From positions 1 through 16,393 of IMG/VR virus record IMGVR_UViG_3300045988_045918: DNA of 16,393 nucleotides; one strand, written 5' to 3'. This stretch comes from a virus. Below are positions 1 to 16,393 of this stretch, piece by piece. A program made the position numbers and the translations under genes. Under the pieces are notes generated by a model. The model was not told the origin of the DNA, did no database searches, and saw nothing but the letters and a program-made list of their open reading frames with translations. Positions within the stretch are counted from its first letter, which is position 1, and every line of letters starts with the position of its first letter.

Positions 1-33
1 CCTTAACTCCCTCGAAACCTTAAGAAATAATAC

Positions 34-62
34 TTGACAAAAAGTGGCCCATATGTTATAAT
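34..62 (+). promoter_or_regulatory. Sigma-A type promoter (ITR P1), reading inward
   Basis: TTGACA (34-39), 17-bp spacer, TATAAT (57-62), with an extended -10 TG at 54-55. The -35 lies within TACTTGAC. Confidence 0.8.
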
Positions 63-120
63 AGAATTGATACCCTAAAACACCTTATTTAATGTTAACA
101 AAATGTTCACATTTAAGTAC

Positions 121-149
121 TTGACTTACATCTAATTAAGATATATAAT
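121..149 (+). promoter_or_regulatory. Sigma-A type promoter (ITR P2), reading inward
   Basis: TTGACT (121-126), 17-bp spacer, TATAAT (144-149). The -35 is again within TACTTGAC (118-125). It lies about 40 nt upstream of the ATG at 192. Confidence 0.8.
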
Positions 150-191
150 AAATATAGAAACAACATAAACAATAACAAGGAGGAATAAACT

Positions 192-581
192 ATGACAAAG
201 GAACAGATTATCCAAGCACTCAGGAATGACTACGCTGATTGTATGCATCGTTCGGCACACCTTGAAGAATCAAGCAACGACGAATACCTCGAAGGAGTCC
301 TTGACGGACGTGCGCGTGGTGCGTTGCACGCTATTGAATTACTAAAGCAACTTGAACCAAATTCCAGAGAAATAAAGAAAACCGCAAATGTAGCCTTACG
401 TGATTTATATCTCATTAATAGTGATTGGACTTCTAACTCAATATTGCATATTAAATGCGGTTATTGTGCCCCAACTGAGGATATGACAGCGCACGAAGCA
501 ATTGTACGTTTTGGAACTAATATAGTACGTTTATTTACTGAAAATCACGTGTCTATTTTCCCTAGAGAACCAGAATCTTAA
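192..581 (+). CDS. Hypothetical early protein (129 aa). The first 92 codons are encoded inside the left ITR. Paralog of 15876..16202.
   Basis: Strong RBS AAGGAGG (177-183) 8 nt before the ATG. It lies downstream of two consensus promoters. The N-terminal 92 aa are identical to the right-end copy. I recognise no motif. Confidence 0.85.
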   Translation: MTKEQIIQALRNDYADCMHRSAHLEESSNDEYLEGVLDGRARGALHAIELLKQLEPNSREIKKTANVALRDLYLINSDWTSNSILHIKCGYCAPTEDMTAHEAIVRFGTNIVRLFTENHVSIFPREPES

Positions 582-611
582 GAATTTGTTCACACTCTGT
601 TCATATTTACT

Positions 612-620
612 TGATATAAT
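612..620 (+). promoter_or_regulatory. Possible extended -10 promoter upstream of the 75-aa ORF
   Basis: TGaTATAAT at 612-620, preceded by TACTTGA (608-614), which resembles the TACTTGAC box of the ITR promoters. There is no good -35 at 17-bp spacing. Confidence 0.4.
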
Positions 621-645
621 GAAATCATAAGGAGGTGAACATAAG

Positions 646-873
646 ATGCTAAAGACATTATTTGAGCAGATGATTGAACAATACGGAAATTGGAATTTTT
701 ACAAGATGCCCCGTTCTGATTCGCCTTTTTCCAAATACATGTTCACCCCTCAAGGCGATACATTCATGATGATAGTTGAACTTGACATGATGTATCATGA
801 GAAAGAATTACCAGTATTACTCACATTGATAAACAGAGATATTTACAAAATTTTGTCAATCAAATTTTACTAA
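646..873 (+). CDS. Hypothetical early protein (75 aa)
   Basis: Very strong RBS AAGGAGGTGA (630-639) before the ATG at 646. Co-oriented with the early operon. No recognisable motif. Confidence 0.75.
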   Translation: MLKTLFEQMIEQYGNWNFYKMPRSDSPFSKYMFTPQGDTFMMIVELDMMYHEKELPVLLTLINRDIYKILSIKFY

Positions 874-1008
874 CCAGTTGTCAACGCCTACACCTAACCA
901 ATAACAATTCACAGAAACCCCACTCACAGAGATGCGTATAAAATGTCAAGTAGGCGTTAACATAAATAAGCCATTAACTAAATCAAACAAGAAAAGGAGA
1001 CAAACACC

Positions 1009-1305
1009 ATGGCAAAAGAATCAATGGTAACAAGAACAATCATCAGCACCCAGGTAACTGTATTAGGCGTAGACGAGGTAGCTGGAGAAGCAACAAACGC
1101 AACCTACAACCTGCCCGGAGATTACACCGATAAGGCAAAGGCCCTTAAGGCAGTAATCAAAGCCAACACTGTAGAAACCTACCATCCCTCTGTCGTAGTA
1201 GACATGAAAAAGGAAGAGCGTGTTTTAGGTATTCCTGTATCCAAGTTCATGGAACTCGCAGTAGAGGTAGAACGTCCAAAGTCTCAGCAGAAGAAAGAAG
1301 CGTAA
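1009..1305 (+). CDS. Putative phi29 p6-like histone-like dsDNA-binding protein (98 aa)
   Basis: RBS AAGGAG. The size, the MAK.. N-terminus and the C-terminal segment RVLGIPVSKFMELAVEVERPK resemble phi29 p6 as I recall it (..VYELPVEKFLEVATVRVEK..). The position is syntenic: p6, p5, TP, DNAP. Confidence 0.55.
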   Translation: MAKESMVTRTIISTQVTVLGVDEVAGEATNATYNLPGDYTDKAKALKAVIKANTVETYHPSVVVDMKKEERVLGIPVSKFMELAVEVERPKSQQKKEA

Positions 1306-1339
1306 CCAACAACCACAACAACGAAAAGGAGATTAAACC

Positions 1340-1693
1340 ATGACAATTACAACTATGAGTAGTGAGAACTTCACCAAGGCAGAACTTTACAGGATGACAA
1401 AAAGCCCGTCAATCGTTTCAGTTAAGGCCATTCCTGACGGAACGATAATGACACCAATAGGGTGGTTGACATTTGACGATGAGAACAACAAAGGAGAAGT
1501 TTCCCACATGCTTTCCATCATCGGAGTAGGCGAGGACGACCAGGAGGTAGTATGGTCTTGTCAGTCACAGACGTTCAAGGACAATTTCATGGACTTGTGG
1601 GAATTGTTCAAGGGTGACACATTCAAGATTAAGAAGTTATCAGGCGAAACGAAAGCAGGACTTGAGTACGTTAACTGTGACCTTGCAGTATAG
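1340..1693 (+). CDS. Putative phi29 p5-like single-stranded DNA-binding protein (117 aa)
   Basis: RBS AAGGAG. AIPDGTIMTPIGW and DTFKIKKLSGETKAGLEYVNCDL resemble phi29 p5 as recalled (NLPDGTIIEANAI; ETFKVKVVQGTSSKGNVFFSLQL). The position between the p6-like gene and the TP/DNAP genes is syntenic. Confidence 0.6.
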   Translation: MTITTMSSENFTKAELYRMTKSPSIVSVKAIPDGTIMTPIGWLTFDDENNKGEVSHMLSIIGVGEDDQEVVWSCQSQTFKDNFMDLWELFKGDTFKIKKLSGETKAGLEYVNCDLAV

Positions 1694-1705
1694 AACGGAA
1701 TAACC

Positions 1706-1733
1706 GGGGAGGGAAACCTCCCCACTATTTTAT
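1706..1733 (+). terminator. Stem-loop, possible attenuator or partial terminator between the SSB and the TP/DNAP block
   Basis: GGGGAGG (1706-1712), GAAA tetraloop, CCTCCCC (1717-1723), then ACTATTTTAT. The U-tract is interrupted, so it is probably leaky. Confidence 0.45.
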
Positions 1734-1752
1734 CCAATCAGGAGGTGTTAAC

Positions 1753-1896
1753 ATGGATATGATATGTTGTGAAAACTGTAGGTATTTCAATCGTAACGTT
1801 AGGGAAGAGCCATGTTTATCCTGTTCATTCACTCAAGACAGGATAGAATATTGGGAACCAATCATAGAGGAGGTATACGATGGCGAAGAAACCTAA
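1753..1896 (+). CDS. Small Cys-rich (zinc-ribbon-like) protein, 47 aa, absent from the ORF track
   Basis: Hand translation gives MDMICCENCRYFNRNVREEPCLSCSFTQDRIEYWEPIIEEVYDGEET*. AGGAGGTG RBS (1740-1747) lies about 5 nt before the ATG at 1753. Two CxxC pairs (C6/C9 and C21/C24). The stop overlaps the start of the TP gene by 17 nt. Confidence 0.55.
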   Translation: MDMICCENCRYFNRNVREEPCLSCSFTQDRIEYWEPIIEEVYDGEET

Positions 1897-2581
1897 AACA
1901 ACCGATTTACGTAAAACGCAATTATCAGACGTACAGAAGCAATACCGCAAAGAACGCCGCCGTATCCAGCGTCAGATACGCCGTATGGAGAACCGAGCCT
2001 ATGACGTTCCCTCATTACTACCAGATATACCTAAGCGCATCACCAAAGCAAGTGTTAACAAGCTTAAGAAAATTACCACCGAATACCTGTACTCACGGTC
2101 ACGCTATATTGACACAGAAACAGGTGAAATCCTAACAGGCGAACAAGGGCGTAAGCAGGAACGCAAGGAAGCCGCGCAGAGAGCGGCGCAGACGCGTAAG
2201 GAACGCAAGCGTGAATCAGTAATACCCCCAAGGCAACCAGTAACCCCTCCAGCAGAAGTTGAGTACGTGGATTTCACGAATCAGATATTTACTGTATTCC
2301 AGATGGAAATGACTCAGATATACGGACGCAATGAAAGGTTGTTCAATTACCTTACACGCTGGTTCAACATGGCACGAGCACGTTATGGCGATGAGGACTT
2401 CGCGGAAGCCTTAGAGCAATCAAAGGCAGACGGTATGTGGCCTGGATGGGAAGGTGTATCCGATACAGAAATACTGGTCGGAAAGTTAACTGGAATCCTT
2501 GAATTAATAGGTGGTACAGCAGGTGGTCGTGAGGAAATCATCGAGAGCCTGGAAGCAGGTGAGGAATGGGAAGAAGTCTGA
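1880..2581 (+). CDS. Candidate terminal protein (TP) for protein-primed replication (233 aa)
   Basis: RBS GAGGAGG (1866-1872). It lies immediately upstream of, and overlaps, the protein-primed DNA polymerase, as phi29 gene 3 does with gene 2. The N-terminal half is very K/R-rich and the C-terminus is acidic. The size is close to phi29 TP (266 aa). The call rests on position and composition; I recognise no direct motif. Confidence 0.6.
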   Translation: MAKKPKTTDLRKTQLSDVQKQYRKERRRIQRQIRRMENRAYDVPSLLPDIPKRITKASVNKLKKITTEYLYSRSRYIDTETGEILTGEQGRKQERKEAAQRAAQTRKERKRESVIPPRQPVTPPAEVEYVDFTNQIFTVFQMEMTQIYGRNERLFNYLTRWFNMARARYGDEDFAEALEQSKADGMWPGWEGVSDTEILVGKLTGILELIGGTAGGREEIIESLEAGEEWEEV

Positions 2582-4485
2582 CAGAATTTATAGAACCACA
2601 ACTATTGGAGGATTATAAGAATGTGCGAACACGCAATTATGAGTACTATGTTTGTGACTTTGAAACAACGGTTTTTAAAGACCAAACCTATACAGAAGTA
2701 TGGGCCGCAGCATTTGTCAAACTCTGGTCAGAAGATGTAGAAATTTATCATTCTATCAACGAGTTTCTTGACGGAGTATTTGACTTAGGATGTAATGTAA
2801 TAGGATACTTCCATAACCTTAAGTTTGATGGTAATTTTATTATAGATTACCTTCTGAGAAACAACTACAAGTGGAACAGAACATCCGAACGTAACATGAA
2901 TAACAATGATTTTAAGTGCTCTATCAGCGATAGAGGTGCATGGTACACAATTACTATTAAGCATAAGAACAACATCATTGAGTTTAGGGATTCACTAAAG
3001 CTTTTACCTTTCAGTGTAGAACGCATTGGCAAGTCATTTAAGACGAAACACAAGAAGCTTAACATGGAATACGAGGGGTTCAGATTTGCAGGATGCGTGA
3101 TAACTCCAGAGGAAATAGAATATATAGCTAATGATGTATTAGTAGTTAAAGAAGCACTTGAAATCATGTTTGAGAGAGGGCATCAAAAACTAACAATTGG
3201 TTCCTGCTGTCTGGAGGAGTTTAAGCAGACGTATGACAAGCAGGATTATAAGAACTTTTTTCCTGATTTAACGGAGGTGGAAATAGATGAGCAGACATAT
3301 GGAGAACAAACAGCCGATGCATACATCCGTCATAGTTACCGTGGAGGATATTGCTACCTTGTTAAAGGAAAAGAGAATCGTATATACAACCGAGGATGGA
3401 CAGCAGATATCAATAGTTCTTACCCTTCAAACATGTCATCAGAATCAGGAAACTACTACCCGGTTGGAAAGCCACAGTTTTGGACAGGAGAAATTCCAGA
3501 AGTGGCTAAAGAAAACTATTATTTTGTCAGAATCAGATGTAGATTTCAGGTAAAACCGGGGATGTTACCAACGGTACAGATTAAAGGAAGCTTTCTGTAC
3601 GTAGGAACAGACTACCTAACTACAAGTGATTATTACGATTATAGCACAGGAACCTACAAACGTTATTACATGAAAAACGGAAAGTTTCACGATAGCTACG
3701 TAACCATGACAATGACAGGCGTTGATTACGAGTTGTTCCTTAAGCATTACAATGTATTTGACCTACAAATACTGGACGGATGCTGGTTCAGGCAGGAGAT
3801 TGGGTTATTTGATGAGTATATGTATAAGTATAAGAAGATTAAGGAGAACAGCAAGGATGCCGAAAGAGAGTTGGCAAAACTTTACCTTAATAACCTGTAT
3901 GGCAAGTTCTCATCCAACGACCTTTCAAGTTATAAGGTTCCGTATATTAATGACAAGAATGTTTTAGGTTTTGAAATAGTAGAAGAGCACGAGAAGAAGC
4001 CGGGGTTCATAGCGGTCGGAAGTGCAATCACATCATATGCAAGGAGGTTCGTAATCAATGCCGCGCAAGCTAATTATCAAGGGCCGGATAGGGACGGTTT
4101 CATATACTGCGATACAGATTCCATTCATTGTAGTGGCAATCCTAATGACGCAAAAGGAATTAAGATTCATCCTACAAATTTCTGTGCATGGAAACTCGAG
4201 AGTTATTGGGACAAAGCGATTTTTGTTAGGCAGAAAACGTATATTGAGCATGTCACTCACAACGATGGGGAACCAGTAGAACCATATTACTCAATCAGGT
4301 GCGCTGGTATGGGCGAGAAAGCAAAGCAGGAGTTCCTTAAAGAACATGATATACATGAGTTTAAAGAAGGGCTTAAGCTTAATAACATGTTAAAACCAGT
4401 AAGAATGCCTGGAGGAATTGTATTGGTAAATAAGGGTTATCATATGACTCCAAAGAGATTTAACAAGTTCCAGGAAGAAAAGTAA
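2566..4485 (+). CDS. Protein-primed family-B DNA polymerase (phi29 gp2-like)
   Basis: Motifs nearly identical to phi29 DNAP as recalled: ExoI YVCDFETT, ExoII YFHNLKFDGNFI, ExoIII YIANDVLVV, motif A DINSSYPS, motif B KLYLNNLYGKF, motif C YCDTDSIH, and KxY RQKTYIE. The ATG at 2566 follows AGGTGA. An in-frame GTG at 2623 after GGAGG (2606-2610) is an alternative start. Confidence 0.97.
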   Translation: MGRSLTEFIEPQLLEDYKNVRTRNYEYYVCDFETTVFKDQTYTEVWAAAFVKLWSEDVEIYHSINEFLDGVFDLGCNVIGYFHNLKFDGNFIIDYLLRNNYKWNRTSERNMNNNDFKCSISDRGAWYTITIKHKNNIIEFRDSLKLLPFSVERIGKSFKTKHKKLNMEYEGFRFAGCVITPEEIEYIANDVLVVKEALEIMFERGHQKLTIGSCCLEEFKQTYDKQDYKNFFPDLTEVEIDEQTYGEQTADAYIRHSYRGGYCYLVKGKENRIYNRGWTADINSSYPSNMSSESGNYYPVGKPQFWTGEIPEVAKENYYFVRIRCRFQVKPGMLPTVQIKGSFLYVGTDYLTTSDYYDYSTGTYKRYYMKNGKFHDSYVTMTMTGVDYELFLKHYNVFDLQILDGCWFRQEIGLFDEYMYKYKKIKENSKDAERELAKLYLNNLYGKFSSNDLSSYKVPYINDKNVLGFEIVEEHEKKPGFIAVGSAITSYARRFVINAAQANYQGPDRDGFIYCDTDSIHCSGNPNDAKGIKIHPTNFCAWKLESYWDKAIFVRQKTYIEHVTHNDGEPVEPYYSIRCAGMGEKAKQEFLKEHDIHEFKEGLKLNNMLKPVRMPGGIVLVNKGYHMTPKRFNKFQEEK

Positions 4486-4507
4486 CAATATTTGCGCAAG
4501 TATTGTT

Positions 4508-4540
4508 AAAGGGAGGATAAGATTATCCTCCCTTTTATAT
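4508..4540 (+). terminator. Intrinsic terminator of the early/replication operon, possibly bidirectional
   Basis: AAAGGGAGGATA-AGAT-TATCCTCCCTTT: a 9-12 bp GC-rich stem (4508-4519 / 4524-4535) followed by TTTTATAT. The A-tract upstream allows some function on the minus strand. It is preceded by a near-palindrome, CAATATTTGCGCAAGTATTG (4486-4505). Confidence 0.8.
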
Positions 4541-4646
4541 CTGAACAGATGGTCTATAAAGTGGGTTTCCAATACCCTATACCCCATCGGCATGTTTTAC
4601 CATGTGGATTCCGACAGCGGCAAATTATAGATAACACCTGTAGATA

Positions 4647-5678
4647 CTAATATGATAAAAGTTTTATAAGCATCTGTTTGCAGTCCAGGTTCTTGAATCT
4701 GAAACACCCCTGGTTGAACAGCATACGGAAATGATTGATTAACAGCGCATTCTTTGCTATCATAACATAGTTTATGTTGTGGTCGTCTGTAGTTAATGAA
4801 AGCTTATATGGGAAGCTACTGTCATAGTTATCAGTAACATACATGATACCCAATCCGTCATACTCATAGATGGCGTAGTGCTTCTTAAGGTACTTGACGG
4901 TGTAGCAATACCTTCCACGCCCCTCAGGCTTATCTATGAATGAGAAGTTATCGTTAAGGTATACATTCTGACTAGCGTACATAACATAATCGCTGGACGC
5001 AAATGCCCGGTTGAATCCCGAGTCAAGTTGTGCGTCACTAGCAGATTTAATGAAACCTTGCTCAAGAACAAACCCATCACCTCTCAGGAAATTAGTTTCC
5101 TTTTTAAGTCTGTCACTTATTCCAAGGCTTGCGTAGTAAGGATTAAGTAAGCTTACTGTATTTCCACACATGTACACAGGCACGTAACGAATCTGCTTAC
5201 CGTTACCACGGGCAATACTTGTATGCACGGATAACAGCTTACGGATTTCATCCGTGCAGTATTTGTTTGTCTCGCTCTGGAACTCATCCATCATCATGCG
5301 TTCTACATCATTGAAAAGGTGGCTATATTTCTTGATTGCGTCAGCGTTATTAAGCGCAATAGCATAACCGCATGGCTCATCATTTAGGAACATTTCGTGG
5401 AAGATACCTTTAGCCATAGGACGGCTTGTCATTTCATCATCAGGGAAGAACAAACCGTGAATATCCTTAAAGAATTTTTCTGCACAATCTGACAACTCAT
5501 AGTTGAATCTATAAATCAGGCAGAACTTACCTTTTCCCTGTTTAAACTTCTTAACAAGATAACGGCTAAACCATGTGGTCTTACCACCTGTTCGGTTGGT
5601 AGTAACCATAAACAGTTCTGGTTCACGACCGTTAAGGTCTTTCATGGACAGCAATTTGGTCCCGTCATAGTAAGCCAT
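4647..5678 (-). CDS. DNA encapsidation/packaging ATPase (phi29 gp16-like)
   Basis: 343 aa, versus 332 aa for phi29 gp16. Walker A TNRTGGKTT, Walker B MMMDEFQ. RBS AAAGGAG 6 nt before the ATG. It is the only clear internal gene on the minus strand (the right-ITR paralog at 15876..16202 is also on minus). Confidence 0.88.
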   Translation of the reverse strand: MAYYDGTKLLSMKDLNGREPELFMVTTNRTGGKTTWFSRYLVKKFKQGKGKFCLIYRFNYELSDCAEKFFKDIHGLFFPDDEMTSRPMAKGIFHEMFLNDEPCGYAIALNNADAIKKYSHLFNDVERMMMDEFQSETNKYCTDEIRKLLSVHTSIARGNGKQIRYVPVYMCGNTVSLLNPYYASLGISDRLKKETNFLRGDGFVLEQGFIKSASDAQLDSGFNRAFASSDYVMYASQNVYLNDNFSFIDKPEGRGRYCYTVKYLKKHYAIYEYDGLGIMYVTDNYDSSFPYKLSLTTDDHNINYVMIAKNALLINHFRMLFNQGCFRFKNLDCKQMLIKLLSY

Positions 5679-5712
5679 GCCTAACTCCTTTCAAACTATA
5701 GTTTCTCTAATT

Positions 5713-5741
5713 ATTGTAACACATTTTCATTGACAAGTCAA
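5713..5741 (-). promoter_or_regulatory. Sigma-A type promoter for the packaging ATPase gene (leftward)
   Basis: On the minus strand: TTGACT (5741..5736), 17-bp spacer, TACAAT (5718..5713), with a TGn extended -10. The -35 is within TACTTGAC, the same box as in the ITR promoters. Confidence 0.7.
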
Positions 5742-5758
5742 GTATAATTTGATATAAT
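5730..5758 (+). promoter_or_regulatory. Sigma-A type promoter for the lysis and morphogenesis (late) operon (rightward)
   Basis: TTGACA (5730-5735), 17-bp spacer, TATAAT (5753-5758), with an extended -10 TG at 5750-5751. Its -35 abuts the -35 of the leftward promoter (5730-5735 versus 5736-5741). Confidence 0.75.
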
Positions 5759-5781
5759 AAAAGGTAGGAAGGAGGTGTAAC

Positions 5782-5973
5782 ATGAATGATATTGCTAGTA
5801 TCATAAGTACGGTTGGGTTTCCAATTGCGCTTACCCTGATTCTGTTATGGTATATCTATGACAGCAACAATAAGCACAAGGAAGAAATCGACAAAATGTC
5901 AGAGGCATTGAACAACAATACCCTTGCGCTGACAAAATTGTTAGACAGGATGGAGAGTGATAAACATGTTTAA
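5782..5973 (+). CDS. Holin, BhlA/UviB-like (63 aa)
   Basis: One N-terminal transmembrane segment (ISTVGFPIALTLILLWYIY) followed by a charged coiled C-terminal part, which is the architecture of BhlA/UviB holins. It lies directly upstream of, and overlaps (ATGTTTAA), the muramidase gene. RBS AAGGAGGTG. Confidence 0.7.
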   Translation: MNDIASIISTVGFPIALTLILLWYIYDSNNKHKEEIDKMSEALNNNTLALTKLLDRMESDKHV

Positions 5974-6613
5974 GGGGATTGATGTTTCCAGACACCAAGG
6001 CGAGATTGACTGGGAGAAGGTAATCGATTCTGAGCACTCAGATTTCGCAATCATACGCGCTGGGTTTGGAAATAATAACATTGATGCACAGGCAGAACGC
6101 AATATCGAATGGTGCGAGAAGCTTGGCATACCATACGGGTTATACTGGTTCAGCTATGCGTTACACCCTGACATGGCGAAACGTGAAGCAGAACATCTGA
6201 TTAACTTTGTTGGCTCAAGAAGGCCATCATATCCACTGGTCTATGACTTTGAGTATGACAGCGTTACGCACTGCACTAAGAACGGAGTTAAGGTAACAAG
6301 GGATTTTGTACTTAAATGCACAGAAGCATTTTGTGAACGTCTGGAAGAAGCAGGATTCTACGCTATGTTCTACTGCAACAATGATTATTTACAGAGGTAT
6401 TACCAGGGTTCACGATGTGCAGAAAAATATGACATGTGGTTCGCGCGATACGCCGCTAATCCAGGTAGACCAGTAACATTATGGCAGACTTCTGAATCCG
6501 GTAAGATACCGGGAATATCAGGTAGGTGCGACCTTGACCAGACAGAAAGGGATTACCCTTCTATAATTATCCGTAACAATCTTAACAATTGGAAGGATGT
6601 TTTACATGGCTAA
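5966..6613 (+). CDS. Endolysin, GH25 muramidase (lysozyme), catalytic domain only
   Basis: GIDVSRHQGEIDWEKV, FAIIRAG, a DFE acid pair (YDFEYD) and YWF are typical GH25 (Cpl-1-type) signatures. ATG at 5966 with GGAGAG 8 nt upstream. The ORF-track start at 5957 is an upstream GTG. No obvious cell-wall-binding domain. Confidence 0.88.
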   Translation: MFKGIDVSRHQGEIDWEKVIDSEHSDFAIIRAGFGNNNIDAQAERNIEWCEKLGIPYGLYWFSYALHPDMAKREAEHLINFVGSRRPSYPLVYDFEYDSVTHCTKNGVKVTRDFVLKCTEAFCERLEEAGFYAMFYCNNDYLQRYYQGSRCAEKYDMWFARYAANPGRPVTLWQTSESGKIPGISGRCDLDQTERDYPSIIIRNNLNNWKDVLHG

Positions 6614-7604
6614 TATCCAGGTTGCCTATAATTGGGCCATAGAAGTATGCAATGAACCGAATGTCGGATACTCTCAGCAGTATCGTAACCAGCGCACTGT
6701 TAACGGTATAACATACTATGATTGTTCATCATTCATATGGTATGCTCTACTAGCAGGAGGGTGGGACTTAGAAACTAAATACGGAACATGGCCCTTTACC
6801 ACATCAACCATGGCTAACATCCTTTTACAGGAAGGATTCACACGTTATGACCCATCTGTCCCATGGCTGAAAGGGGATATACTTCTCAGGTCTACCCACA
6901 CGGAAATGGCATTCGATGCGACAAGAACCATGGGCGCACATACCAGCACAGTTCCGTTAGACCAACAGGTGTCAATCAACGTAAATGATTCCCGTGGTAA
7001 CTGGTTGCACCTATACCGTTATGGACAGGGCGCAATCAGCGAGTGGATTAAAGGCAACCGTTATCTCGCAATAGGTGAGATGCAGAACAACGCTACCATC
7101 CAGTTTGCATACTTTATGGATAAGGGATGGACAGCAAACGCCGTGGCTGGAATGCTAGGCAACCAACAAGTGGAATCAACCCTAAACCCAGGCGTGTGGC
7201 AGAACCTTACACCGGGTACCGGGGGGTTTGGTTTAGTACAATGGACACCTTCAACCAACTACACCGATTGGGCTGACCAGCATGGTTACGCCCATGACGA
7301 TGGTAACGGTCAGATGGAGTGGATAGACACTGAGACCGTGCCATTCGGCCAATGGATACCTACATCACAATACCCGGAGACATTCGGTGAGTTCAAGGTA
7401 AGCACACAAACACCTGAATATCTTGCAGATTGTTTCCTGAAGAATTTTGAGCGTCCGTCTGAAATCGACCAACCGATAAGACAGGAATACGCAAGGTATT
7501 GGTATGACTGGTTTGAAGGTCATTATGTTCCACCGCCTAATCCACCGGGTGCGCCGGACTGGAGACATAGAATGCCATTGTACATGTATCTTAAAAAATT
7601 ATGA
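6606..7604 (+). CDS. Two-domain peptidoglycan hydrolase: N-terminal NlpC/P60- or CHAP-like Cys peptidase plus C-terminal phage tail-lysozyme-like domain. Probable virion-associated lysin (functional analogue of phi29 gp13).
   Basis: N-terminal YYDCSSFIWYAL (catalytic Cys context) with a downstream His (STHTEMAF). C-terminal AGMLGNQQVESTLNP...GGFGLVQWTP resembles the GNxxxES / G(L)xQWT pattern of phage tail lysozyme domains. ATG at 6606 follows GGAAGGA. The ATG at 6597 is an alternative start. The start overlaps the lysozyme stop (ATGGCTAA). Confidence 0.7.
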   Translation: MANIQVAYNWAIEVCNEPNVGYSQQYRNQRTVNGITYYDCSSFIWYALLAGGWDLETKYGTWPFTTSTMANILLQEGFTRYDPSVPWLKGDILLRSTHTEMAFDATRTMGAHTSTVPLDQQVSINVNDSRGNWLHLYRYGQGAISEWIKGNRYLAIGEMQNNATIQFAYFMDKGWTANAVAGMLGNQQVESTLNPGVWQNLTPGTGGFGLVQWTPSTNYTDWADQHGYAHDDGNGQMEWIDTETVPFGQWIPTSQYPETFGEFKVSTQTPEYLADCFLKNFERPSEIDQPIRQEYARYWYDWFEGHYVPPPNPPGAPDWRHRMPLYMYLKKL

Positions 7605-7621
7605 TGTTTCACGTGAAACAT
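7604..7621. repeat. Perfect 18-bp palindrome ATGTTTCAC|GTGAAACAT
   Basis: The two 9-nt halves are exactly complementary, centred on CACGTG. It overlaps the last base of the hydrolase stop codon and ends 2 nt before the scaffold-gene RBS (AAAGGAGG). Confidence 0.9.
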
Positions 7622-7636
7622 TGAAAGGAGGAAAGT

Positions 7637-7951
7637 ATGGCTGTATTAGACAGGGATAACTTTTTTAAACGCATCAGGGAACGACTTGGAGAGGATGATT
7701 CCGAGGAAGCCTTATCCTATCTCGAGGATATGACCGACACATGGGAGGACATGGAACGTAGGGCTAGCCGCGAGGGGGAGGAGAATTGGGAGGAGAAATA
7801 CAACAACCTCGATGCTGAGTGGCGCAAGCGTTATAGGGATAGGTTCTTTAACACTCCGGAAGGTGTAAAGGAGGACCAGGAAGAGGATGTTAAGGACGAT
7901 GGTAAAGTACGTAGCTTTGAAACATTATTTGAAGAAAGGGAGGGCGAGTAA
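7637..7951 (+). CDS. Putative scaffolding protein (phi29 gp7-like by size, charge and position)
   Basis: 104 aa, very acidic (E/D-rich) and apparently helical. It lies immediately upstream of the major capsid gene, as phi29 gp7 (98 aa) does. RBS AAAGGAGG. Confidence 0.6.
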   Translation: MAVLDRDNFFKRIRERLGEDDSEEALSYLEDMTDTWEDMERRASREGEENWEEKYNNLDAEWRKRYRDRFFNTPEGVKEDQEEDVKDDGKVRSFETLFEEREGE

Positions 7952-8467
7952 ATGCCTATTAAACCAGAGAAAGTCACAATGAACACCGTGACCGCAAATG
8001 CGGCACAGCAGTACAGGGCAGAAGCGACTAACGCAAACCTCGAGGGAGTAAGCAACATGAGGTTAGCAACAGCGCAGATTCTTAACACAATCAGGGACAA
8101 TGCATCTGCTAACTATAGGGATTACATCCCAGAAGCAGACCCCATCAGTCAGGCAAGCGTAAGGCAGATTGGTGGTATAATCATGAACTACCCGGCCTTA
8201 CAGAATGAGTTCCTTAACGCACTCATGAACCGTATCGGTCGTGTGCTGATAACTTCCAAGATGTTTTACAACCCATGGTCTGGTCTTAAGAAAGGCCTGC
8301 TTGAGTTTGGCGAGACAGTGGAAGAGATTTTTGTGAACATAGCAAAGCCTTTCCAGTTCGACCCGGCTGTAGCTGAGACTGATGTATTTAAGCGTGAAAT
8401 CCCGGACGTGCGTGCGGCTTTCCACATCCTTAACTATCAGAAGTTTTATAAAGCCAATCAGCAATGA
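7952..8467 (+). CDS. Major capsid protein (phi29 gp8-like), N-terminal frame segment
   Basis: ILNTIRDNASANYRDYIPEA, NEFLNALMNRIGRVLI, GETVEEIF, VFKREIPDVRAAFHILNYQKFY align with phi29 gp8 as recalled ([66 protein letters not shown]). The frame ends at TGA 8465-8467, where homologs continue. Confidence 0.9.
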   Translation: MPIKPEKVTMNTVTANAAQQYRAEATNANLEGVSNMRLATAQILNTIRDNASANYRDYIPEADPISQASVRQIGGIIMNYPALQNEFLNALMNRIGRVLITSKMFYNPWSGLKKGLLEFGETVEEIFVNIAKPFQFDPAVAETDVFKREIPDVRAAFHILNYQKFYKANQQ

Positions 8468-9404
8468 CCAGCTTAGACAGGCGTTCCTGTCATGGCAGGG
8501 AATCACAGACCTGATTGCAAAGATTGTTGACAGCATGTATACAGGTGCAAACTACGATGAGTTCCTGACCATGAAATACATGTTGGCCCGCAACATATTA
8601 CAGGGCCGTATGAACGTGACTGAGATTGCGCCCGTGACCGCAGAAAACGCAAAAACCATCGTTTCAACCATTAAGGGGATAAGCAACGTGTGGGAGTTCC
8701 CATCCACCAACTACAACCTGTCAGGCGTTACTACCCAGACAGAGAAGCGTGACCAGATTCTGCTGATTAACGCTAAGTTCGATGCACTGATGGACGTGGA
8801 AGTCCTTGCCGCCGCATTCAACATGGAAAAGGCAGAGTTCATGGGCAACCGGGTTCTAGTTGACAGCTTCGGTTCCCTTGATACAGCAAGGCTGGAAATC
8901 TTGTTTAAGGATGACCCTAACTTTGTTCCGATTAGTCAGGCAGAGTTACAGGCCCTTGACGCGATTCCTGTAGTTATGGTCGATAGGGATTGGTTCATGA
9001 TTTTTGACAACTTCTACAACTTTACCGAGAACTACAATGGACAGGGGTTGTACTGGAACTACTTCTACCACACCTGGAAAACGTTCAGCGTTTCACCGTT
9101 CGCAAACAACACCATTTATGTGGGAGGCGCACCGACCGTGACAAGCGTAACCGTTTCTCCAGCAACGGCCACAGTAGTTAAGGGGCAGAACATTAAGCTG
9201 ACAGCCGCAGTTGTTACAACCAACTTCGCGCCTAAGTCCGTTGTATGGTCATTAACAGGGGCTACTTCTGCTGACACACATATTGATATCTACGGAAATC
9301 TGTATGTTGCGGAAGATGAAACAGGAACAACGCTTACAATTACTGCAACATCTACTTTTGACAGCACTAAGGTTGGAACGGCAACCATCACAGTCTCTGC
9401 TTAA
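8382..9404 (+). CDS. Major capsid protein (phi29 gp8-like), C-terminal frame segment including a BIG2 Ig-like domain. Homology starts at about 8454.
   Basis: In the +1 frame relative to 7952..8467. [60 protein letters not shown] match phi29 gp8 ([54 protein letters not shown]). The C-terminal [20 protein letters not shown]...ITVSA is a BIG2-type domain. Residues encoded from 8382 to about 8453 are just the open frame, not homologous sequence. Confidence 0.9.
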   Translation: [340 protein letters not shown]

Positions 9405-9411
9405 CATCATT

Positions 9412-9431
9412 GCCCCTGGTTTTCCAGGGGC
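9412..9431 (+). promoter_or_regulatory. GC-rich stem-loop just after the capsid gene (RNA-stabilising or partial attenuator)
   Basis: GCCCCTGG-TTTT-CCAGGGGC: an 8-bp stem with a 4-nt loop and no U-tract. It lies 8 nt after the capsid stop and directly before the RBS of the next gene. Confidence 0.5.
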
Positions 9432-9445
9432 TTGGAGGTATCATC

Positions 9446-10960
9446 ATGTATGTAGCACCTAATAGTAATGTCAGGATACTTAGAAACGTACCACTTGACA
9501 ATACTTATAGGAACACGATATATTTTTCTACAGTGGCTAATCAGGCCGCTTACTTCACAACGCTGACTAAATTTAACAATCCAGCATTGTCATACGTAAA
9601 CCTTAATGAACCGATAATGATTGGAATTAATGCAGAACAATTGTATGATTGTAACTACATGATGTTTCAGAATGCATCCTTTGGCACAAAATGGTTCTAT
9701 GCTTTCATAACCTCAGTTAAGTACATCAATAATGAAACGTCTGAGATTACAATGGAAATTGATGTGATGCAGACATGGTTCTTTGACTATACTGTTAATC
9801 CATCATTCGTTGTTAGGGAACATTCGCTTACAGACGGAATTGGCGAAAATCTTGTGCCTGAGGACTTAGAGTTAGGAGAATACATCTACGATACGGCGTT
9901 CAGGACTGATTACATGAACGACTATGTTGTTGTAGTTGCCGCAACGGTTGACAGCACAGGACAGCCGGGAACAAGTACTGGAGGGTACGGAAACATATAT
10001 TCTGGATGCTGGTTACATGTATTTGACACGTTTCCAGCCGTTGCAGTGTTCCTTGATAAACTGGTAGCTGATAACAAAGGGGATGCGGTAGTATCAATAT
10101 TCATGATGCCGTCAAGCTTCACCACAATCATGGGTGCACCAGCTAAACACTACACGATTGAAAGGGATAAACAACGTGGAACCATAGACGGTTACACACC
10201 CAAGAACAACAAGTTATTCACGTATCCATATTGCTTCCTTTACGTGACTAATCTTATGGGTAATAGCGCAACCTATAAGTATGAATATTTTAACTCAGCC
10301 AATTGTGTGTTTGACTTTGCAATGGATATGTCACCTAACCCAACCGGGATGCTGACACCATTAGGTTACAAAAACGTGGGGGCTAACTACAACGAGTCAA
10401 TGACAATTAGCGGTTTCCCTCAGTGCTCATTCACCACTGACACATACCGTGCGTGGCTTGCGCAGAACGGTTCCAGCATGACCATTGACATGTTGGGAAG
10501 TGCAATGGCGGCTTCTGTAGGTGCAATTGCTGGAGGCCCTATCGGCGCAATAGGCGCAGTAGGGGGATTCACTAATGTGGCTAAAACACTTGCGCGTGTT
10601 AATGCAATATCAGCACAACCACCACAGTCACATGGTTCACAATCAAACACAGCACAGGTAGCATTTTCAATTAAGGACTTTTGGTTCCTAAACTATCACG
10701 TTAGGGCTGAGTTCGCTAAAATCATAGATGATTACTTCAATACCTACGGTTACGCGACTCATAGAGTTAAGGTTCCAAACCGTAGCCAAAGACCGCACTG
10801 GAATTACGTAAAGACTCAAAACTCCAATCTTACAGGTAGCGTTCCGGCAGAGGACATGGCTAAACTTAGGGGTATATATGACAACGGGATTACGTTCTGG
10901 AAGAACGGCTCAGAAGTAGGCAACTATGGATTGGATAACAGAGTGGGAGGAGGTGCATAA
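9446..10960 (+). CDS. Tail knob / distal tube protein (phi29 gp9-like), 504 aa
   Basis: MYVAPNSNVRILRNVPLDNTYRNTIYF, YMMFQNASFGTKWFYAFIT, IDVMQTWFFD, FVVREH, and C-terminal YGY..HRVKVPN....HWNYVKT, IYDNGITFW match phi29 gp9 as recalled ([92 protein letters not shown]). GGAGGT RBS before the ATG at 9446. The track start at 9410 is an upstream TTG that runs through the hairpin. Confidence 0.88.
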   Translation: MYVAPNSNVRILRNVPLDNTYRNTIYFSTVANQAAYFTTLTKFNNPALSYVNLNEPIMIGINAEQLYDCNYMMFQNASFGTKWFYAFITSVKYINNETSEITMEIDVMQTWFFDYTVNPSFVVREHSLTDGIGENLVPEDLELGEYIYDTAFRTDYMNDYVVVVAATVDSTGQPGTSTGGYGNIYSGCWLHVFDTFPAVAVFLDKLVADNKGDAVVSIFMMPSSFTTIMGAPAKHYTIERDKQRGTIDGYTPKNNKLFTYPYCFLYVTNLMGNSATYKYEYFNSANCVFDFAMDMSPNPTGMLTPLGYKNVGANYNESMTISGFPQCSFTTDTYRAWLAQNGSSMTIDMLGSAMAASVGAIAGGPIGAIGAVGGFTNVAKTLARVNAISAQPPQSHGSQSNTAQVAFSIKDFWFLNYHVRAEFAKIIDDYFNTYGYATHRVKVPNRSQRPHWNYVKTQNSNLTGSVPAEDMAKLRGIYDNGITFWKNGSEVGNYGLDNRVGGGA

Positions 10961-11868
10961 TGTCAAGAGGACGGAATAACGTAAACGGCCCAAAAGGAGA
11001 TAGGGAGTTCTGGAATGCAAAGAAGTGTAATGACTGGACGTTCATACAGTACTACAACCGATTGGTCGACCTATGCATATCTCAGTTTGAGTGGATAAAC
11101 TTACCAACAACCTGTGACAGACGATTCCTTGAACTTACACTTATGGCAGATGGCATGGCGGTGTTCTTTAGGGACGAAATCATGGGTTATCTATCATTGC
11201 AATGTATGATATCAGGGCCGTTGGATGTATACAGGATACCTATTTTGCGCAGGGCGTATGCAAGCAACGGGTATCAAATGCCGCTGGATAATCTTAACAG
11301 CGTGCTTATCTTTAACAACTCACTGCACACTAACAGTCAGTTAGATATAGAGATGTACGCTTGGAGATTGTACGAAGTACAAAGGGCAATTGACACCAAC
11401 ATCAAACTACAGAAAACGCCAAAGATTGTTAAGTGTTCTGAAAACCAGAGGTTGACAATCATTAACTTGTTTAAACAGTATGAGGGTAACTACCCGTTCA
11501 TATTCGCCGACAAGGCAATGGACTTGAAGGGCCTGGAATCAATTGACATAGCGGCACCTTATGTGGCTGATAAATTGATGGTTATCAAACAGCAGATTTG
11601 GGACGAAGCTATGACATATCTCGGAATAGCTAACACTAACACTTCAAAACGTGAAAGACTTAATACTTCTGAGATATCTGTAGGAATGGGTGATGTGGAA
11701 GCACAGAGGTATACAAGATTGATGGAAAGGGAGATAGCCGTTGAAAGAATTAACTCTATGTTTGGTCTTGACTTAGATGTTAAATACAAACAGGTAATAC
11801 CAACCCTGCCTGATAATCTTGAAGATGGCGAGGGAGAGGAAACTGATGAAAAGGAGGATGACGAATGA
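10960..11868 (+). CDS. Portal / upper collar connector protein (phi29 gp10-like)
   Basis: 302 aa, versus 309 aa for phi29 gp10. QFEWINLP, QKTPKIV, NQRLTIINLFKQYEGNYPFIFA, APYVADKL, WDEAMTYLGI.N.N.SKRERL match phi29 gp10 ([65 protein letters not shown]). TAATG stop/start overlap. RBS GGAGGAGGTG. Confidence 0.92.
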   Translation: MSRGRNNVNGPKGDREFWNAKKCNDWTFIQYYNRLVDLCISQFEWINLPTTCDRRFLELTLMADGMAVFFRDEIMGYLSLQCMISGPLDVYRIPILRRAYASNGYQMPLDNLNSVLIFNNSLHTNSQLDIEMYAWRLYEVQRAIDTNIKLQKTPKIVKCSENQRLTIINLFKQYEGNYPFIFADKAMDLKGLESIDIAAPYVADKLMVIKQQIWDEAMTYLGIANTNTSKRERLNTSEISVGMGDVEAQRYTRLMEREIAVERINSMFGLDLDVKYKQVIPTLPDNLEDGEGEETDEKEDDE

Positions 11869-12698
11869 GCGTATACACAACACAAGTAAGATTCATCTGT
11901 GAAGCAGAAGCCGGACTTAAGAAAAGCGTTGGTTATGATGATGTTGAAACAGTCATTCAGAACGCCATCCCTAAGATATTCAGTTTCGATTGGCCCATAT
12001 TTGATGAGAATTATAGAAACGTACTTGAGACAAAAATACTTAAGCATTACTACACTAGGGAGATTGGGTTAGAGACATACGGACTTTGGAAACTCAAACT
12101 TGACACTAAGCTTAATGAGATTATGCCATACTACAATCAGCTATACAAAAGTGCTTTACTTGACTTCAATCCGTTCTACGATGTTGACCTGACTAGGAAT
12201 CACACTGGTAAAAAGACAGGTACCGAAGCTTTGAAAGGTAATGTAGATGTTAATGGTCAGGTAATTGTTGACAACCATGGTAATGTCAATACGACCGACA
12301 ATACCACCGTAAACAATACCACAACGTCAGATAACTTGGATAAATATTCTGCAACACCGCAGGGTGGATTAGATAACTTAAGAAATGACAAGTATCTGAC
12401 TAATGCAAGAATGATTACAGATGCAAATAACAGCAACGGAACAACAAACGGAAAAACAGATACTAGCACGGACAGTACAACGGATACAACCACGAATACA
12501 ACAACCATCACGAACAATAACACAACCATAAACAATACTGAGGATTACTTGGAAACTGTTAAGGGAAAACAAGGCACTCAAAGTTACGCCGGATTACTAC
12601 TGGAATTTAGGGAAACTTTCCTTAATATCGACATGATGGTGATTGATGACCTGAGTGAATTGTTTATGAATATATGGACAGGAGGATATCCATTTTGA
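11865..12698 (+). CDS. Lower collar protein (phi29 gp11-like) with an internal Asn/Thr-rich low-complexity insert
   Basis: 277 aa, versus 293 aa for phi29 gp11. It sits in the gp11 position between the portal and the appendage/tailspike. The N-terminal VRFICE...PIFDENYRNVLETKILKHYYTREIG...IMPYYNQLY pattern is typical of picovirus lower collar proteins as I recall them. ATGA start/stop overlap. RBS AAGGAGGA. Confidence 0.7.
   Translation: MSVYTTQVRFICEAEAGLKKSVGYDDVETVIQNAIPKIFSFDWPIFDENYRNVLETKILKHYYTREIGLETYGLWKLKLDTKLNEIMPYYNQLYKSALLDFNPFYDVDLTRNHTGKKTGTEALKGNVDVNGQVIVDNHGNVNTTDNTTVNNTTTSDNLDKYSATPQGGLDNLRNDKYLTNARMITDANNSNGTTNGKTDTSTDSTTDTTTNTTTITNNNTTINNTEDYLETVKGKQGTQSYAGLLLEFRETFLNIDMMVIDDLSELFMNIWTGGYPF
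12290..12545 (+). repeat. Low-complexity A/C-rich coding tract (Asn/Thr/Asp-rich) inside the lower collar gene
   Basis: Translated as TTDNTTVNNTTTSDN...NNSNGTTNGKTDTSTDSTTDTTTNTTTITNNNTTINNTED. The nucleotide level shows iterated ACAAC/ACGAC/AATAC units with no fixed period. Confidence 0.8.
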
Positions 12699-15600: not shown

Positions 15601-15799
15601 AAATTTACCTGATTCTATTCCGGCAACTGGATTTATAGGGGCGCTGTATGAAATGTTCTTTACTGTAACAAGTACAGGGATAGAATTTACTAAATCAAAC
15701 AGAATTAATTTAACTACGACTGAGAATGGCAGTGTAAAAGCCGCTGTTGCTACTGATAGCGATAGTAGGTTAACGGCTGTAACACTGTGTGATATGTAA
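12695..15799 (+). CDS. Tailspike / pre-neck appendage-like receptor-binding protein (phi29 gp12 position) with a pectate-lyase-type beta-helix
   Basis: N-terminal LPTVFNDALSYNEQVCKL anchor-type motif. GDGVTDDTAAIQAMI...FPAGIYSV, followed by repeated N/G/V-rich rungs, is the hallmark of Pectate_lyase_3-type right-handed beta-helices. A central repeat-like region (VYVAQ.., LYAMSP.., IYQPISG..) suggests a beta-propeller. The TTG at 12695 has a GGAGGA RBS 8 nt upstream and a TTGA overlap with the gp11-like stop. The ATG at 12674 (track start) has no RBS. Confidence 0.8.
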   Translation: MTTTTTNFKSIQLLRQWCMLTLPTVFNDALSYNEQVCKLTKAINDMANTINGLPDYIIELVKELLNQLSLEEIVKEVLADLYFLNVKNPPNNMVAAMGDGVTDDTAAIQAMIAYLSGKRAYLFFPAGIYSVTGLNVTTNMSLVGFDRYQTTLQLRAGSNKNLLTGDLGACTINDITLDANMPGQTQNCSVFDGNVGNMLVSNVIFKNGYNVFGVDVNGLVQMDNVIFDSVQGNGLSIGGDRVVANNIEFVNNSLNASTLITISGTNCMLTNLLNTSNCSKVLNITGNNNVIMGVAKGTQTPYTVGGTDNFVDLITTEGHVVIDGNYTHNTNGDVSTTCNSSTQNINTNNTVHVDGNDLLTANNSTETINTTKEITANDIYLNPTNPLKYGSVKDYNNYFKVVDMKDKNENPYNLLVPGADIAQIGNINSLTISARRLGRWLIPFGNNTADRGATLAFSYSQGSYFIESTNRMLVGFIPFNTDDIRKNNDCMIREYSMADGGLIREKVIPSGGHVNGMGMDETNQIVYVAQTLTYDSAGETVGSKVILALDYDTLNVIRVITVDTTLATFLNSVSYDNDTNKLYAMSPSYIFEINSTTGAIISTIPLSKPDGLDSAELGYQDGAIRGGFIYQPISGPEGLIVYDMTGALVKVFNFPNYTDNLYAWSETEGITVLNNGDLMINCCTQIDNASEYCCTQVFYCSDTVAVLEKNLYRGSPNKFSVTYLDFASTAFNPTGLESAPFKIPGELLMSLKANTYAPQISEIRVTAGEYPAIRLDGMSNLHFVCNGASFSSIICTKCSNIYFASAVIKKTNFYVTNALYVSRVTGLTLDNLLCTTAEWTYPDTYVFYIEKSSFTWLGGVGSSDYINPNTYDTGKLFYLIDYSLTNNSSFQNVSTSYQKLINTGYTLATGSAAPGSTLNFNSAITNGWVTDPITKFRYINFEIRTDAGAHSQCHKFRISNGNSYVVRMLNLPDSIPATGFIGALYEMFFTVTSTGIEFTKSNRINLTTTENGSVKAAVATDSDSRLTAVTLCDM

Positions 15800-15813
15800 G
15801 GGAGGTTAATGTT

Positions 15814-15845
15814 AAGGGATAGGTTGTGATGGCCTATCCCTTTTT
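15814..15845 (+). terminator. Intrinsic terminator of the late operon
   Basis: AAGGGATAGG (15814-15823), 9-nt loop, CCTATCCCTT, running into TTTTT (15841-15845). It lies 15 nt after the tailspike stop. Confidence 0.85.
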
Positions 15846-15875
15846 AGTTGCGTTATAAAATCGCGATAACATTAT

Positions 15876-16202: not shown

Positions 16203-16244
16203 AGTTTATTCCTCCTTGTTATTGTTTATGTTGTTTCTATATTT

Positions 16245-16273: not shown

Positions 16274-16331
16274 GTACTTAAATGTGAACATTTTGTTAAC
16301 ATTAAATAAGGTGTTTTAGGGTATCAATTCT

Positions 16332-16360: not shown

Positions 16361-16393
16361 GTATTATTTCTTAAGGTTTCGAGGGAGTTAAGG

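Follow-up and report, generated by a model that had tools for sequence, protein, structure and literature searches.

Probable recent expansion of an inverted terminal repeat into an early gene of a phi29-like phage from the human gut

Introduction

Long inverted terminal repeats (ITRs) are sporadic in phi29-like phages. In the phi29-like Streptococcus phage Cp-1 group, ITRs of ~236-347 bp differ among close relatives (236 bp in Cp-1 itself), which implies that their boundaries move. To our knowledge, no microhomology junction or cut gene has been described in the Cp-1 group, and in a non-exhaustive literature search we know of no documented account of how long ITRs originate from short repeats in phi29-like phages. 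Here we analysed the IMG/VR record IMGVR_UViG_3300045988_045918 over its whole 16,393-nt stretch (the window; coordinates are window positions, and L- and P-numbers denote fetched contigs and proteins), in which an ITR of 467 nt ends inside the coding sequence of an early gene, ORF1 (ORF, open reading frame). A comparable genome is that of Lactococcus phage asccphi28 (Salasmaviridae; GenBank EU438902), for which ITRs of 577 bp are annotated, with promoters on both arms and no coding sequence (CDS) inside. Like the window it belongs to a phi29-like, protein-primed podophage with an unusually long promoter-bearing ITR, and it shows that phages of this group can live with promoter-bearing ITRs of some 0.5 kb. 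Unlike that of the window, its ITR ends in intergenic DNA, before ORF01 (614) and after ORF28 (which ends at 18168), with no gene cut, and its record offers no known short-ITR sibling or junction scar. By blast (L127), the asccphi28 arms match over 1-609 versus 18154-18762 at 98.7% identity, past the annotated 577 nt, an imperfect inner edge of the type that the original prediction for the window had proposed.

ITR expansion by inverted duplication is, as such, already known from poxviruses, including the 2022 Mpox virus genomes (PMC10230479; reviewed in PMC9973261). In these viruses, as in our reading of the window, one end is duplicated in inverted orientation onto the other, sequence is lost at the acceptor site, the boundary moves and accessory genes are duplicated or truncated, and the expansion is seen in single isolates beside unexpanded siblings. 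Poxviruses differ in their hairpin-ended genomes, their other mode of replication and the kilobase scale of the events, whereas the window is protein-primed by prediction, with an event of ~0.5 kb and an acceptor site inside a replication-origin block.

Two further systems bear on how one genome end can be copied onto the other. In the adenovirus panhandle, formed from a protein-primed linear genome, the displaced strand pairs with itself and one end is copied from the other, by which ITR identity is kept and a damaged end can be regenerated. That pairing joins existing ITRs; in the window it would have been ectopic, at a look-alike of the origin C-tract inside a gene, and for this reason the repeat would have grown instead of being restored. 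The second system is multiple displacement amplification (MDA) with phi29 DNA polymerase, in which inverted products make up >85% of chimeras. At >70% of the junctions priming takes place through 2-21 nt of complementarity, with a preference for displaced 5' strands belonging to the same molecule (Lasken and Stockwell, PMC1855051). The window resembles these chimeras in its inverted, short-complementarity junction and, as proposed below, in the priming of a displaced 3' end on the displaced strand of the same molecule, and it encodes a polymerase of the same family as the enzyme used in MDA. MDA chimeras are nevertheless in vitro artefacts made with random primers, whereas the event in the window would be in vivo, protein-primed and heritable.

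Junction and sibling genomes

Positions 1-467 of the window are the exact reverse complement of 15927-16393 (Table 1). The repeat extends to 475 nt with a single mismatch at 468 (G left, A right); positions 469-475, CCCCAAC, are common to both arms, and further inward the arms are unrelated. The boundary lies exactly between codons 92 and 93 of ORF1, the left (ORF1L) and right (ORF1R) copies sharing codons 1-92. A 467-bp ITR carrying two promoters, an AAGGAGG ribosome-binding site (RBS) and codons 1-92, with ORFs of 129 and 108 aa, had been described in the original prediction, and all of this was found again on re-reading the sequence. The same holds for its claim that the boundary lies inside a real CDS and yields two promoter-equipped ORFs with the same N-termini and differing C-termini, the coding status of which is backed by relatives. 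Three promoter sites in the window match the consensus at 12/12 positions; two are the ITR copies and the third stands at 5730, before the late genes.

Table 1 Features of the window and their coordinates
Feature	Position	Strand	Remarks
ITR, left arm	1-467	+	467-nt perfect identity with the reverse complement of 15927-16393
Promoter P1, early, TTGACA-17-TG-TATAAT	34-62	+	12/12 consensus; right-arm copy 16360-16332; kept in L019, L022, L013
Promoter P2, early, TTGACT-17-TATAAT	121-149	+	11/12 consensus; right-arm copy 16273-16245; kept in relatives
RBS AAGGAGG	177-183	+	8 nt before the ATG at 192; right copy 16211-16217
ORF1L, 129 aa	192-581	+	full-length conserved early protein, two domains in the model
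CCCCAAC, left partner	469-475	+	ORF1 codons 93-95, immediately inside the ITR boundary
p6-like dsDNA-binding protein	1009-1305		phrog_6370
Candidate terminal-protein ORF, 233 aa	1880-2581		directly upstream of and overlapping the polymerase gene, the usual position of a terminal-protein gene
DNA polymerase, protein-primed family-B	2566-4485		PF03175 DNA_pol_B_2 4.6e-51; phrog_1907 7e-141
gp16-type packaging ATPase	4647-5678	-	PF05894 3.7e-27
Late block		+	holin, GH25 lysozyme, second lysin, scaffold, capsid, tail knob, connector, lower collar, 1041-aa fibre
Join artefact, CA dinucleotide missing	8456-8457	.	splits the major capsid gene into 7952-8467 / 8382-9404
Late-operon hairpin terminator	15814-15842	+	13-bp stem, then TTTTAG; T-run on + strand only
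ORF1R, 108 aa	15876-16202	-	ORF1 residues 1-92 + 16 new residues (TPTGTLTLSNVQKFER)
Relic of the ancestral right terminus (ACCCCAACCGGCACCTTAACCTTAAGCAATGTACAAAAATTTGAAC)	15881-15926	-	colinear with terminal blocks of L028, L023, L013, L019, L010, L011
CCCCAAC, right partner	15919-15925	-	within the relic, in the C-rich part of the right-terminal block
ITR, right arm	15927-16393	-	inverted copy of 1-467: P1, P2, RBS, ORF1 codons 1-92

Diverged relatives carry at either end a conserved terminal block of ~60 nt, the normal terminal repeat of this lineage, which runs tttgcccctttaattttttttcg...ttaccatttcccccan...taaccttaac at both ends. The post-boundary sequence of the right arm, ACCCCAACCGGCACCTTAACCTTAAG, is the inner half of this ancestral block: from 468 inward the arm (ACCCCAACCGGCACCTTAACCTTAAGC) is colinear with the block's inner half (...CCATTT-CCCCCAnCnn-nnnnnTAACCTTAAC; alignment A2). 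Sequence identical to the relic listed in Table 1 was found directly behind '...cgcctgttatcattt' at the right ends of L122 and L123, with homologous sequence in L119.

Close siblings of the window show the right end before any expansion. Over 5220-15931, L122 (SRR5091571) differs from the window by 14 mismatches in 10.7 kb (99.84% identity); L123 is 98.4% identical over 5783-15931 and L028 97.2% over the tail-fibre gene and right end (13229-15931), and all three encode the same 1041-aa fibre as the window. Their right ends read ...tttgcccctttattttttttcgcctgtta[t/c]cattt|ACCCCAACCG[G/T]CACCTTAACCTTAAGCAATGTAC..., in an unbroken arrangement (...tttgcccctttattttttttcgcctgtta[t/c]catttACCCCAACCG[G/T]CACCTTAACCTTAAGCAATGTACAAAAATTTGAACG...), and the continuation behind the block in L122 is base for base the right-unique DNA of the window. 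No ORF1 fragment was found at the right ends of these three contigs, nor at the other fetched right ends (L023-L125, ~100 loci, the window's own sample excepted). A survey of other fetched loci for ITRs was uninformative, almost all contigs having lost one end. Positions 1-467 were seen at a right end only in the window's own sample. The L122-type short physical right end reads ...tcatttACCCCAACC / ...gttatcatttACCCCAACC; in the window the outer part of the old right block (...tttgcccctttattttttttcgcctgttatcattt) is gone, and the inner part is kept at 15881-15926. Two features of a poxvirus-type expansion are seen here, as the inverted copy is present at the other end and the resident sequence of the acceptor end has been lost.

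On this comparison, the right arm of the window would be an L122-type end in which the inverted left genome end has taken the place of the outermost ~35 nt or more. Because the terminal block is intact in close strains and ~100 other right ends carry no piece of ORF1, the repeat appears to have grown recently, neither shrinking nor decaying. We consider it probable that this was a recent ITR expansion, with the left end copied in inverted orientation onto the right end and joined there at a 7-base microhomology.

The junction itself is short and distinctive. The left parent reads ...ATTGT|GCCCCAACTG..., the right parent ...CATTT|ACCCCAACCG... and the hybrid ...ATTGT|ACCCCAACCG...; with flanks, T.CCCCAAC.G matches at 9/11 positions. 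CCCCAAC occurs twice in the whole window, exactly at the two junction partners, and the chance of 7 matching bases after a random junction is ~6e-5 (4^-7). At 468 the right arm shares its A with the siblings, whereas the left arm has G, and the crossover can therefore be placed at the outer edge of the 7-nt microhomology; a 40-mer for the junction is GCGGTTATTGTACCCCAACCGGCACCTTAACCTTAAGCAA. The match between GCCCCAACTG and ACCCCAACCG is real, and it is read here as junction microhomology, a recombination scar rather than a trace of decay, because the right-hand version is already present in sibling genomes that have no ORF1 copy. The 16-codon tail of ORF1R (TPTGTLTLSNVQKFER) likewise reads as translation into former non-coding origin DNA, given that it lies in the relic block, which is present without the ORF in L122, L123 and L028.

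As judged from the junction, a template switch is the most likely mechanism. Replication from the left origin would displace the parental + strand as single-stranded DNA, and the 3' end of a + strand finishing ...CGGTTGGGG(T) would anneal to the CCCCAAC at 469-475 of the displaced + strand. Such a 3' end could come from a nascent strand stalled a few tens of nucleotides short of the right end, or from a terminus that had been eroded. Copying of the template through to its 5' end would yield the whole genome, the relic, the reverse complement of 467..1 and the left terminus, which would be exactly the + strand of the window. This would cost the old right block its outer ~35 nt or more and put the inverted terminus, two promoters, the RBS and codons 1-92 in their place. 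The new right end would be an exact copy of a working origin, leaving the genome with two identical origins, and for this reason the product would be expected to replicate normally by protein priming. An inverted junction with 7 nt of complementarity, within the 2-21 nt range, has the form of an MDA-type chimera (PMC1855051).

What is new is a before-and-after pair at 99.84% identity in a protein-primed phage, with the acceptor inside the origin block and a 7-nt scar. The scar points to the phage's own replication chemistry and offers a concrete, testable mechanism tied to the in vitro behaviour of this polymerase family.

Alternative explanations

Several points weigh against this interpretation. 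Host-mediated illegitimate recombination would leave the same scar, the template switch being read from the junction alone, and ORF1R and the right-arm promoters are predictions, as are their expression and any selection on them. The expanded form was found only in contigs identical to the window, at low coverage and from a single apparent sample, with none from an independent sample, and scans of IMG/VR and JGI metagenomes for the junction and relic pattern gave 0 matches. Assemblers prune short tips, so that a co-existing normal right terminus would go unseen and the expanded form could make up a sub-population. That the arms are perfectly identical may itself be a product of the assembler, because a de Bruijn assembler reuses one collapsed repeat node at both ends, and this identity can serve neither for dating nor as a sign of homogenisation.

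These points lead to the alternative that survives best, namely that the right junction is a library or assembly artefact (a microhomology chimera, with the true tip pruned) or belongs to a minor or defective sub-population in one stool sample. We regard this as rather improbable. The contigs that span the junction (L027/L121, L034, L035 and L036) are all identical to the window, and one of them, L035, bears the run name ERR1018200 (sample SAMEA3541484, PRJEB10878); they are very probably re-assemblies of one sample and not independent observations, and the expanded lineage was not found in more than one sample. L027/L121 had been considered as independent support for the right junction and was rejected, because L121 reproduces window 413-15981 exactly, apart from a gap of 10 N at 8456. 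The SPAdes k-mer coverage is ~4.3 (NODE_3875, cov 4.28; NODE_4278, cov 4.38). To the single apparent sample and the low coverage are added the join error at 8456 in the window and its lack of termini, the unrelated DNA joined inside the same C-tract in L125, and relatives that are chimeric at their ends (L001, L012) or bear an adaptor (L022). Inverted short-microhomology junctions are, moreover, the classic form of in vitro chimeras (PMC1855051).

The structure of the assemblies argues on the other side. Four junction contigs (k = 55, 119, 127) run from right-unique DNA through the junction and break off in the repeat after exactly k nt. L121 is symmetric in this respect, its other end lying exactly 55 nt outside the left boundary. 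This k-nt overlap, seen on the ITR node in all assemblies, is the signature of a true inverted repeat node with two exits. The junction must be present in the reads, because at k = 55-127 an overlap of 7 nt is too short to produce a false de Bruijn edge. Both MEGAHIT assemblies contain it, and MEGAHIT by default discards k-mers seen once, a default that may differ from the settings used. The cohort is a bulk faecal metagenome and is not known to have involved an MDA step. The product is also biologically coherent, with two identical origins. For metagenome work in general, 'complete genome with ITR' calls from short reads can rest on one low-coverage junction, the identity of arms in an assembly is uninformative on homogenisation, and where a reading frame continues beyond an ITR boundary, its tail may be former origin DNA in translation and not the diverged sequence of a paralogue.

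The direction of change could also be reversed, with the long ITR ancestral for this right-end module and a deletion of ~0.5 kb in L122, L123 and L028 that joined the outer block to the relic. We hold this to be very improbable. The outer block copy and the inner relic form direct repeats ~0.5 kb apart, which could mediate a deletion restoring the short end. Such a deletion, between the left-derived outer copy and the relic, would however leave an outer half of left type, whereas the right block of the siblings is continuous and its outer half is unlike the left-end block ('cgcctgttatcattt' versus 'cgaaattaccattt'; A versus C before CCCC). Short right termini are universal in other right-end modules (e.g. 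L023-L026, L117, L119), and three diverged short-ended lineages against one expanded sample favour the short end as ancestral.

It is barely credible that, as the original prediction had it, an older and longer terminal duplication spanned the whole gene and kept its outer 467 bp identical through homogenisation while the inner right copy decayed by mutation and indels: agreement at 8/10 positions between GCCCCAACTG and ACCCCAACCG right after the boundary, an 11/12 match (AAGCAATTGTAC / AAGCAATGTAC) ~25 nt further inward and the similarity of the asccphi28 arms to 609 nt, which shows that fuzzy inner ITR edges exist in the group, speak for it, but the best local alignment of left 468-667 with right-reverse-complement 468-667 scores 9, below the mean of shuffled sequences (11.1 +/- 1.8), the right-hand sequence is the conserved terminal block, intact at the physical right end of the 99.84%, 98.4% and ~97% identical strains without an ORF1 remnant, a divergence of 0.16% from L122 leaves no time for the decay of 37 codons while the flanks stay identical, and at none of ~100 other right ends was a piece of ORF1 found. 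The supposed decayed similarity inward of the boundary, on which that proposal had been built, is thus at chance level; the match of AGCAATTGTAC with AGCAATGTAC is chance, because 98% of the 1000 shuffles score at least as high. Comparison of ITR boundaries in relatives, suggested with the original prediction as a check, turned out against it through these same right ends.

ORF1 as an early gene

Twelve homologues of ORF1 were found, and the ~130-aa forms are ~50% identical and conserved through the C-terminus (...TA..A...YG...V..F.EN.VY.F). The ratio of non-synonymous to synonymous substitution rates (dN/dS) is 0.27 against L011, 0.40 against L022 and 0.41 against L120, and it stays below 1 both in the shared part (codons 1-92) and in the part found only on the left (93-129). 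With this range (0.27-0.41) and a conserved full-length form of ~130 aa, the ORF is conserved as coding, so that a refuting condition named with the original prediction (no such conservation in related phages) does not apply, and we read ORF1 as a genuine, conserved, non-universal early accessory gene.

The AlphaFold2 model of ORF1 (mean predicted local distance difference test score 80) consists of two domains. The N domain is a helical hairpin (helices 3-22 and 30-53), and the C domain, of alpha/beta type, covers ~62-123 with strands 62-68, 84-89, 95-99, 111-116 and 119-123 and helices 69-75 and 100-107. In the model, the boundary at 92/93 falls inside the C domain, after the second of its strands and before the third. 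ORF1R would therefore keep the N domain whole but have a disrupted C domain, as it lacks residues 93-129, which make up roughly half of this conserved domain. The proposal that the gene is present at double dose therefore stands for the N-terminal part, which is duplicated, and falls for the remainder, which the right copy lacks. A profile search of 1.84 billion representatives returned 25 relatives only, among them N-domain-only (58-88 aa), C-domain-only (55-76 aa) and C-C tandem forms. Because natural N-only genes exist, ORF1R need not be dead. An exact-sequence look-up of ORF1R was empty, and a cluster look-up returned it as P0045, a 108-aa hypothetical protein of a 16,393-nt JGI/IMG contig.

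Searches for the function of ORF1 gave little. There was no match in PHROGs, Pfam, NCBIfam or PDB sequences, none by tblastn in 50,697 deposited phages, and 0 confirmed loci in metagenome and genome contig collections. With Foldseek, the best PDB hit (E 0.03, template-modelling score 0.39, root-mean-square deviation ~15 A) and the best BFVD hit (an unnamed 90-aa protein, E = 1e-4) were uninformative. A histidine-kinase DHp/CA-like assignment was considered and rejected, as the Foldseek matches behind it were weak (E >= 0.03, root-mean-square deviation ~15 A) and reflect a generic helical-hairpin resemblance. A role in host takeover or anti-defence, guessed from the position of the gene and the variability of its slot, is doubtful at this stage; as a small family with two separable domains in the hypervariable first early slot of gut phages, ORF1 is nonetheless a reasonable candidate for a host-takeover screen.

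The first gene slot behind the terminal promoters was hypervariable (left ends L013-L018, L019, L021, L118 and L120; P0014-P0035). It holds the full two-domain ORF1, N-only genes of 58-93 aa (72, 74 and 93 aa at the left ends of sister lineages), a 58 + 72 aa tandem of N domains (L013-L016), a 120-aa distant homologue (28% identity), or other genes (as in L118 and L120), among which are unrelated ones of 146 and 69 aa. Left-end variants of ORF1 with single-base frameshifts or early stops, often at homopolymer runs, were also seen (L011 250-262, P0003, P0036, P0042 and P0044; for example ATGACAAGG in L011, and CCCCAAAC leading to ...CAPN* in P0003). They are either sequencing errors or a frequent natural truncation of the C-terminus.

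The expansion would give the phage a perfect ITR of ~0.5 kb and a second strong early promoter pair aimed inward, antisense to the late operon. The minus-strand transcript of the hairpin at 15814-15842 folds at -19.6 kcal/mol (z = -4.6) and is followed by UUAACAUUAACC. Since the T-run stands on the + strand only and the minus strand has UUAACAUUAACC after the hairpin, right-arm transcripts probably read through it, antisense to the tail-fibre gene. Antisense read-through of this kind could be costly, and the cost, a link that we infer, would fit the rarity of the expanded form.

A broader proposal is that ectopic 3'-end priming on look-alikes of the origin C-tract regularly lengthens the ITRs of protein-primed phages, the window being a viable intermediate 'caught in the act' and ORF1R being expressed and working like the natural N-domain-only genes. 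We think this unlikely. If it were true, early promoters and gene fragments would be moved to the opposite end, small ORFs would be minted from origin DNA, and ORF1R, an intact N domain with 16 further residues, would be expressed from the first DNA entering the cell.

Genome organization and assembly

By its gene content, the window reads as a near-complete genome of a phi29-like, protein-primed podophage from human gut metagenomes. The phi29-like traits present are the family-B protein-primed polymerase, the gp16-type ATPase, structural genes of phi29 type and the ITRs. The Pfam labels of the late block were taken from the gene tables of colinear relatives, which list Phi29_MCP (PF25622), Phage_connector (PF05352) and Caud_tail_N with phi29_gp9_C. 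The polymerase shares 56% amino-acid identity with that of Clostridium phage CS229P1 and ~36% with that of phi29; by this gene the closest isolates are the Clostridium symbiosum phages CS229P1-3, and unannotated faecal phages are also linked. A nucleotide search with the whole window against the 50,697 deposited phages gave no DNA-level match, while colinear contigs of ~16 kb were numerous in human-gut assemblies. CS229P2 as deposited has no terminal inverted repeat of at least 25 nt.

The early replication genes (p6-like protein, putative terminal protein and polymerase) read inward from the left end. In the phi29 map, by comparison, they read toward the left end, unlike the layout of the window. 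Between the early and the late block, the packaging ATPase is the one gene on the other strand, and promoters at ~5713-5758 are divergent. The 233-aa ORF at 1880-2581 had no Pfam or PHROG match and could be a divergent terminal-protein family. No Rfam match to a packaging RNA (pRNA) was found at E <= 1 anywhere in the window, a weak negative because pRNAs diverge fast.

The window is without its physical termini, because left-end contigs (L005-L008, L010 and L011) continue 7-80 nt past position 1 with consistent sequence (...tttgcccctttaattttttttcgaaattaccatttccccccaccgacctaactaa|CCTTAAC...). L005, which equals window 1-8456 (100%) and so appears to stem from the same sample, adds 29 nt and L010 adds 80 nt, which puts the true left end 29-80 nt or more beyond position 1. 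In different samples, several contigs begin exactly at 'tttgcccc', and L010 and L122 go beyond it. In L022 (IMGVR_UViG_3300045988_044184), positions 1-39 are an adaptor, which we take by eye to be Nextera, fused at the homologue of window position 1 (CCTTAAC...); the join coincides with the window start, a sign that a tagmentation or coverage edge may lie ~55-80 nt short of the real end.

One further join error affects the capsid gene. At 8456 all relatives read AAAGCCACAATCAGC and encode a single Phi29_MCP protein of 481-484 aa. Since L005 ends at 8456 and L121 has its 10 N there, the split in the window reads as a contig-join artefact and not as a programmed frameshift.

Foreign DNA was joined at the ends of some relatives. 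L125 (SAMN06111981; contig 99.9% identical to the window) carries 54 nt of unrelated GC-rich DNA at its right end (7910-7963; ...gcggggga|CCAACCGGCACC), absent from 185,579 reference genomes. This join lies inside the same C-tract, 2-3 nt from the window junction; either the site is fragile or prone to switching and was rearranged a second time, or the read is chimeric. L001 (1-1386 of 17,378 nt) and L012 (1-59 of 20,579 nt) have non-phage DNA joined within the ITR region, L001 at window position 168 and L012 at 117. In L001 the foreign piece encodes part of a response regulator together with a Cys-rich, Fe-S-like ORF, in L012 it is hairpin-rich, and both contigs are probably chimeric assemblies.

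Between the lysin and scaffold genes, an insert of 3 or 4 genes was found in L026 (4576-5677), L117 (6995-8096) and L124 (3220-4026) and is missing from the window. It includes a PF21825 (Sequestin) protein and may be an accessory or anti-defence cassette.

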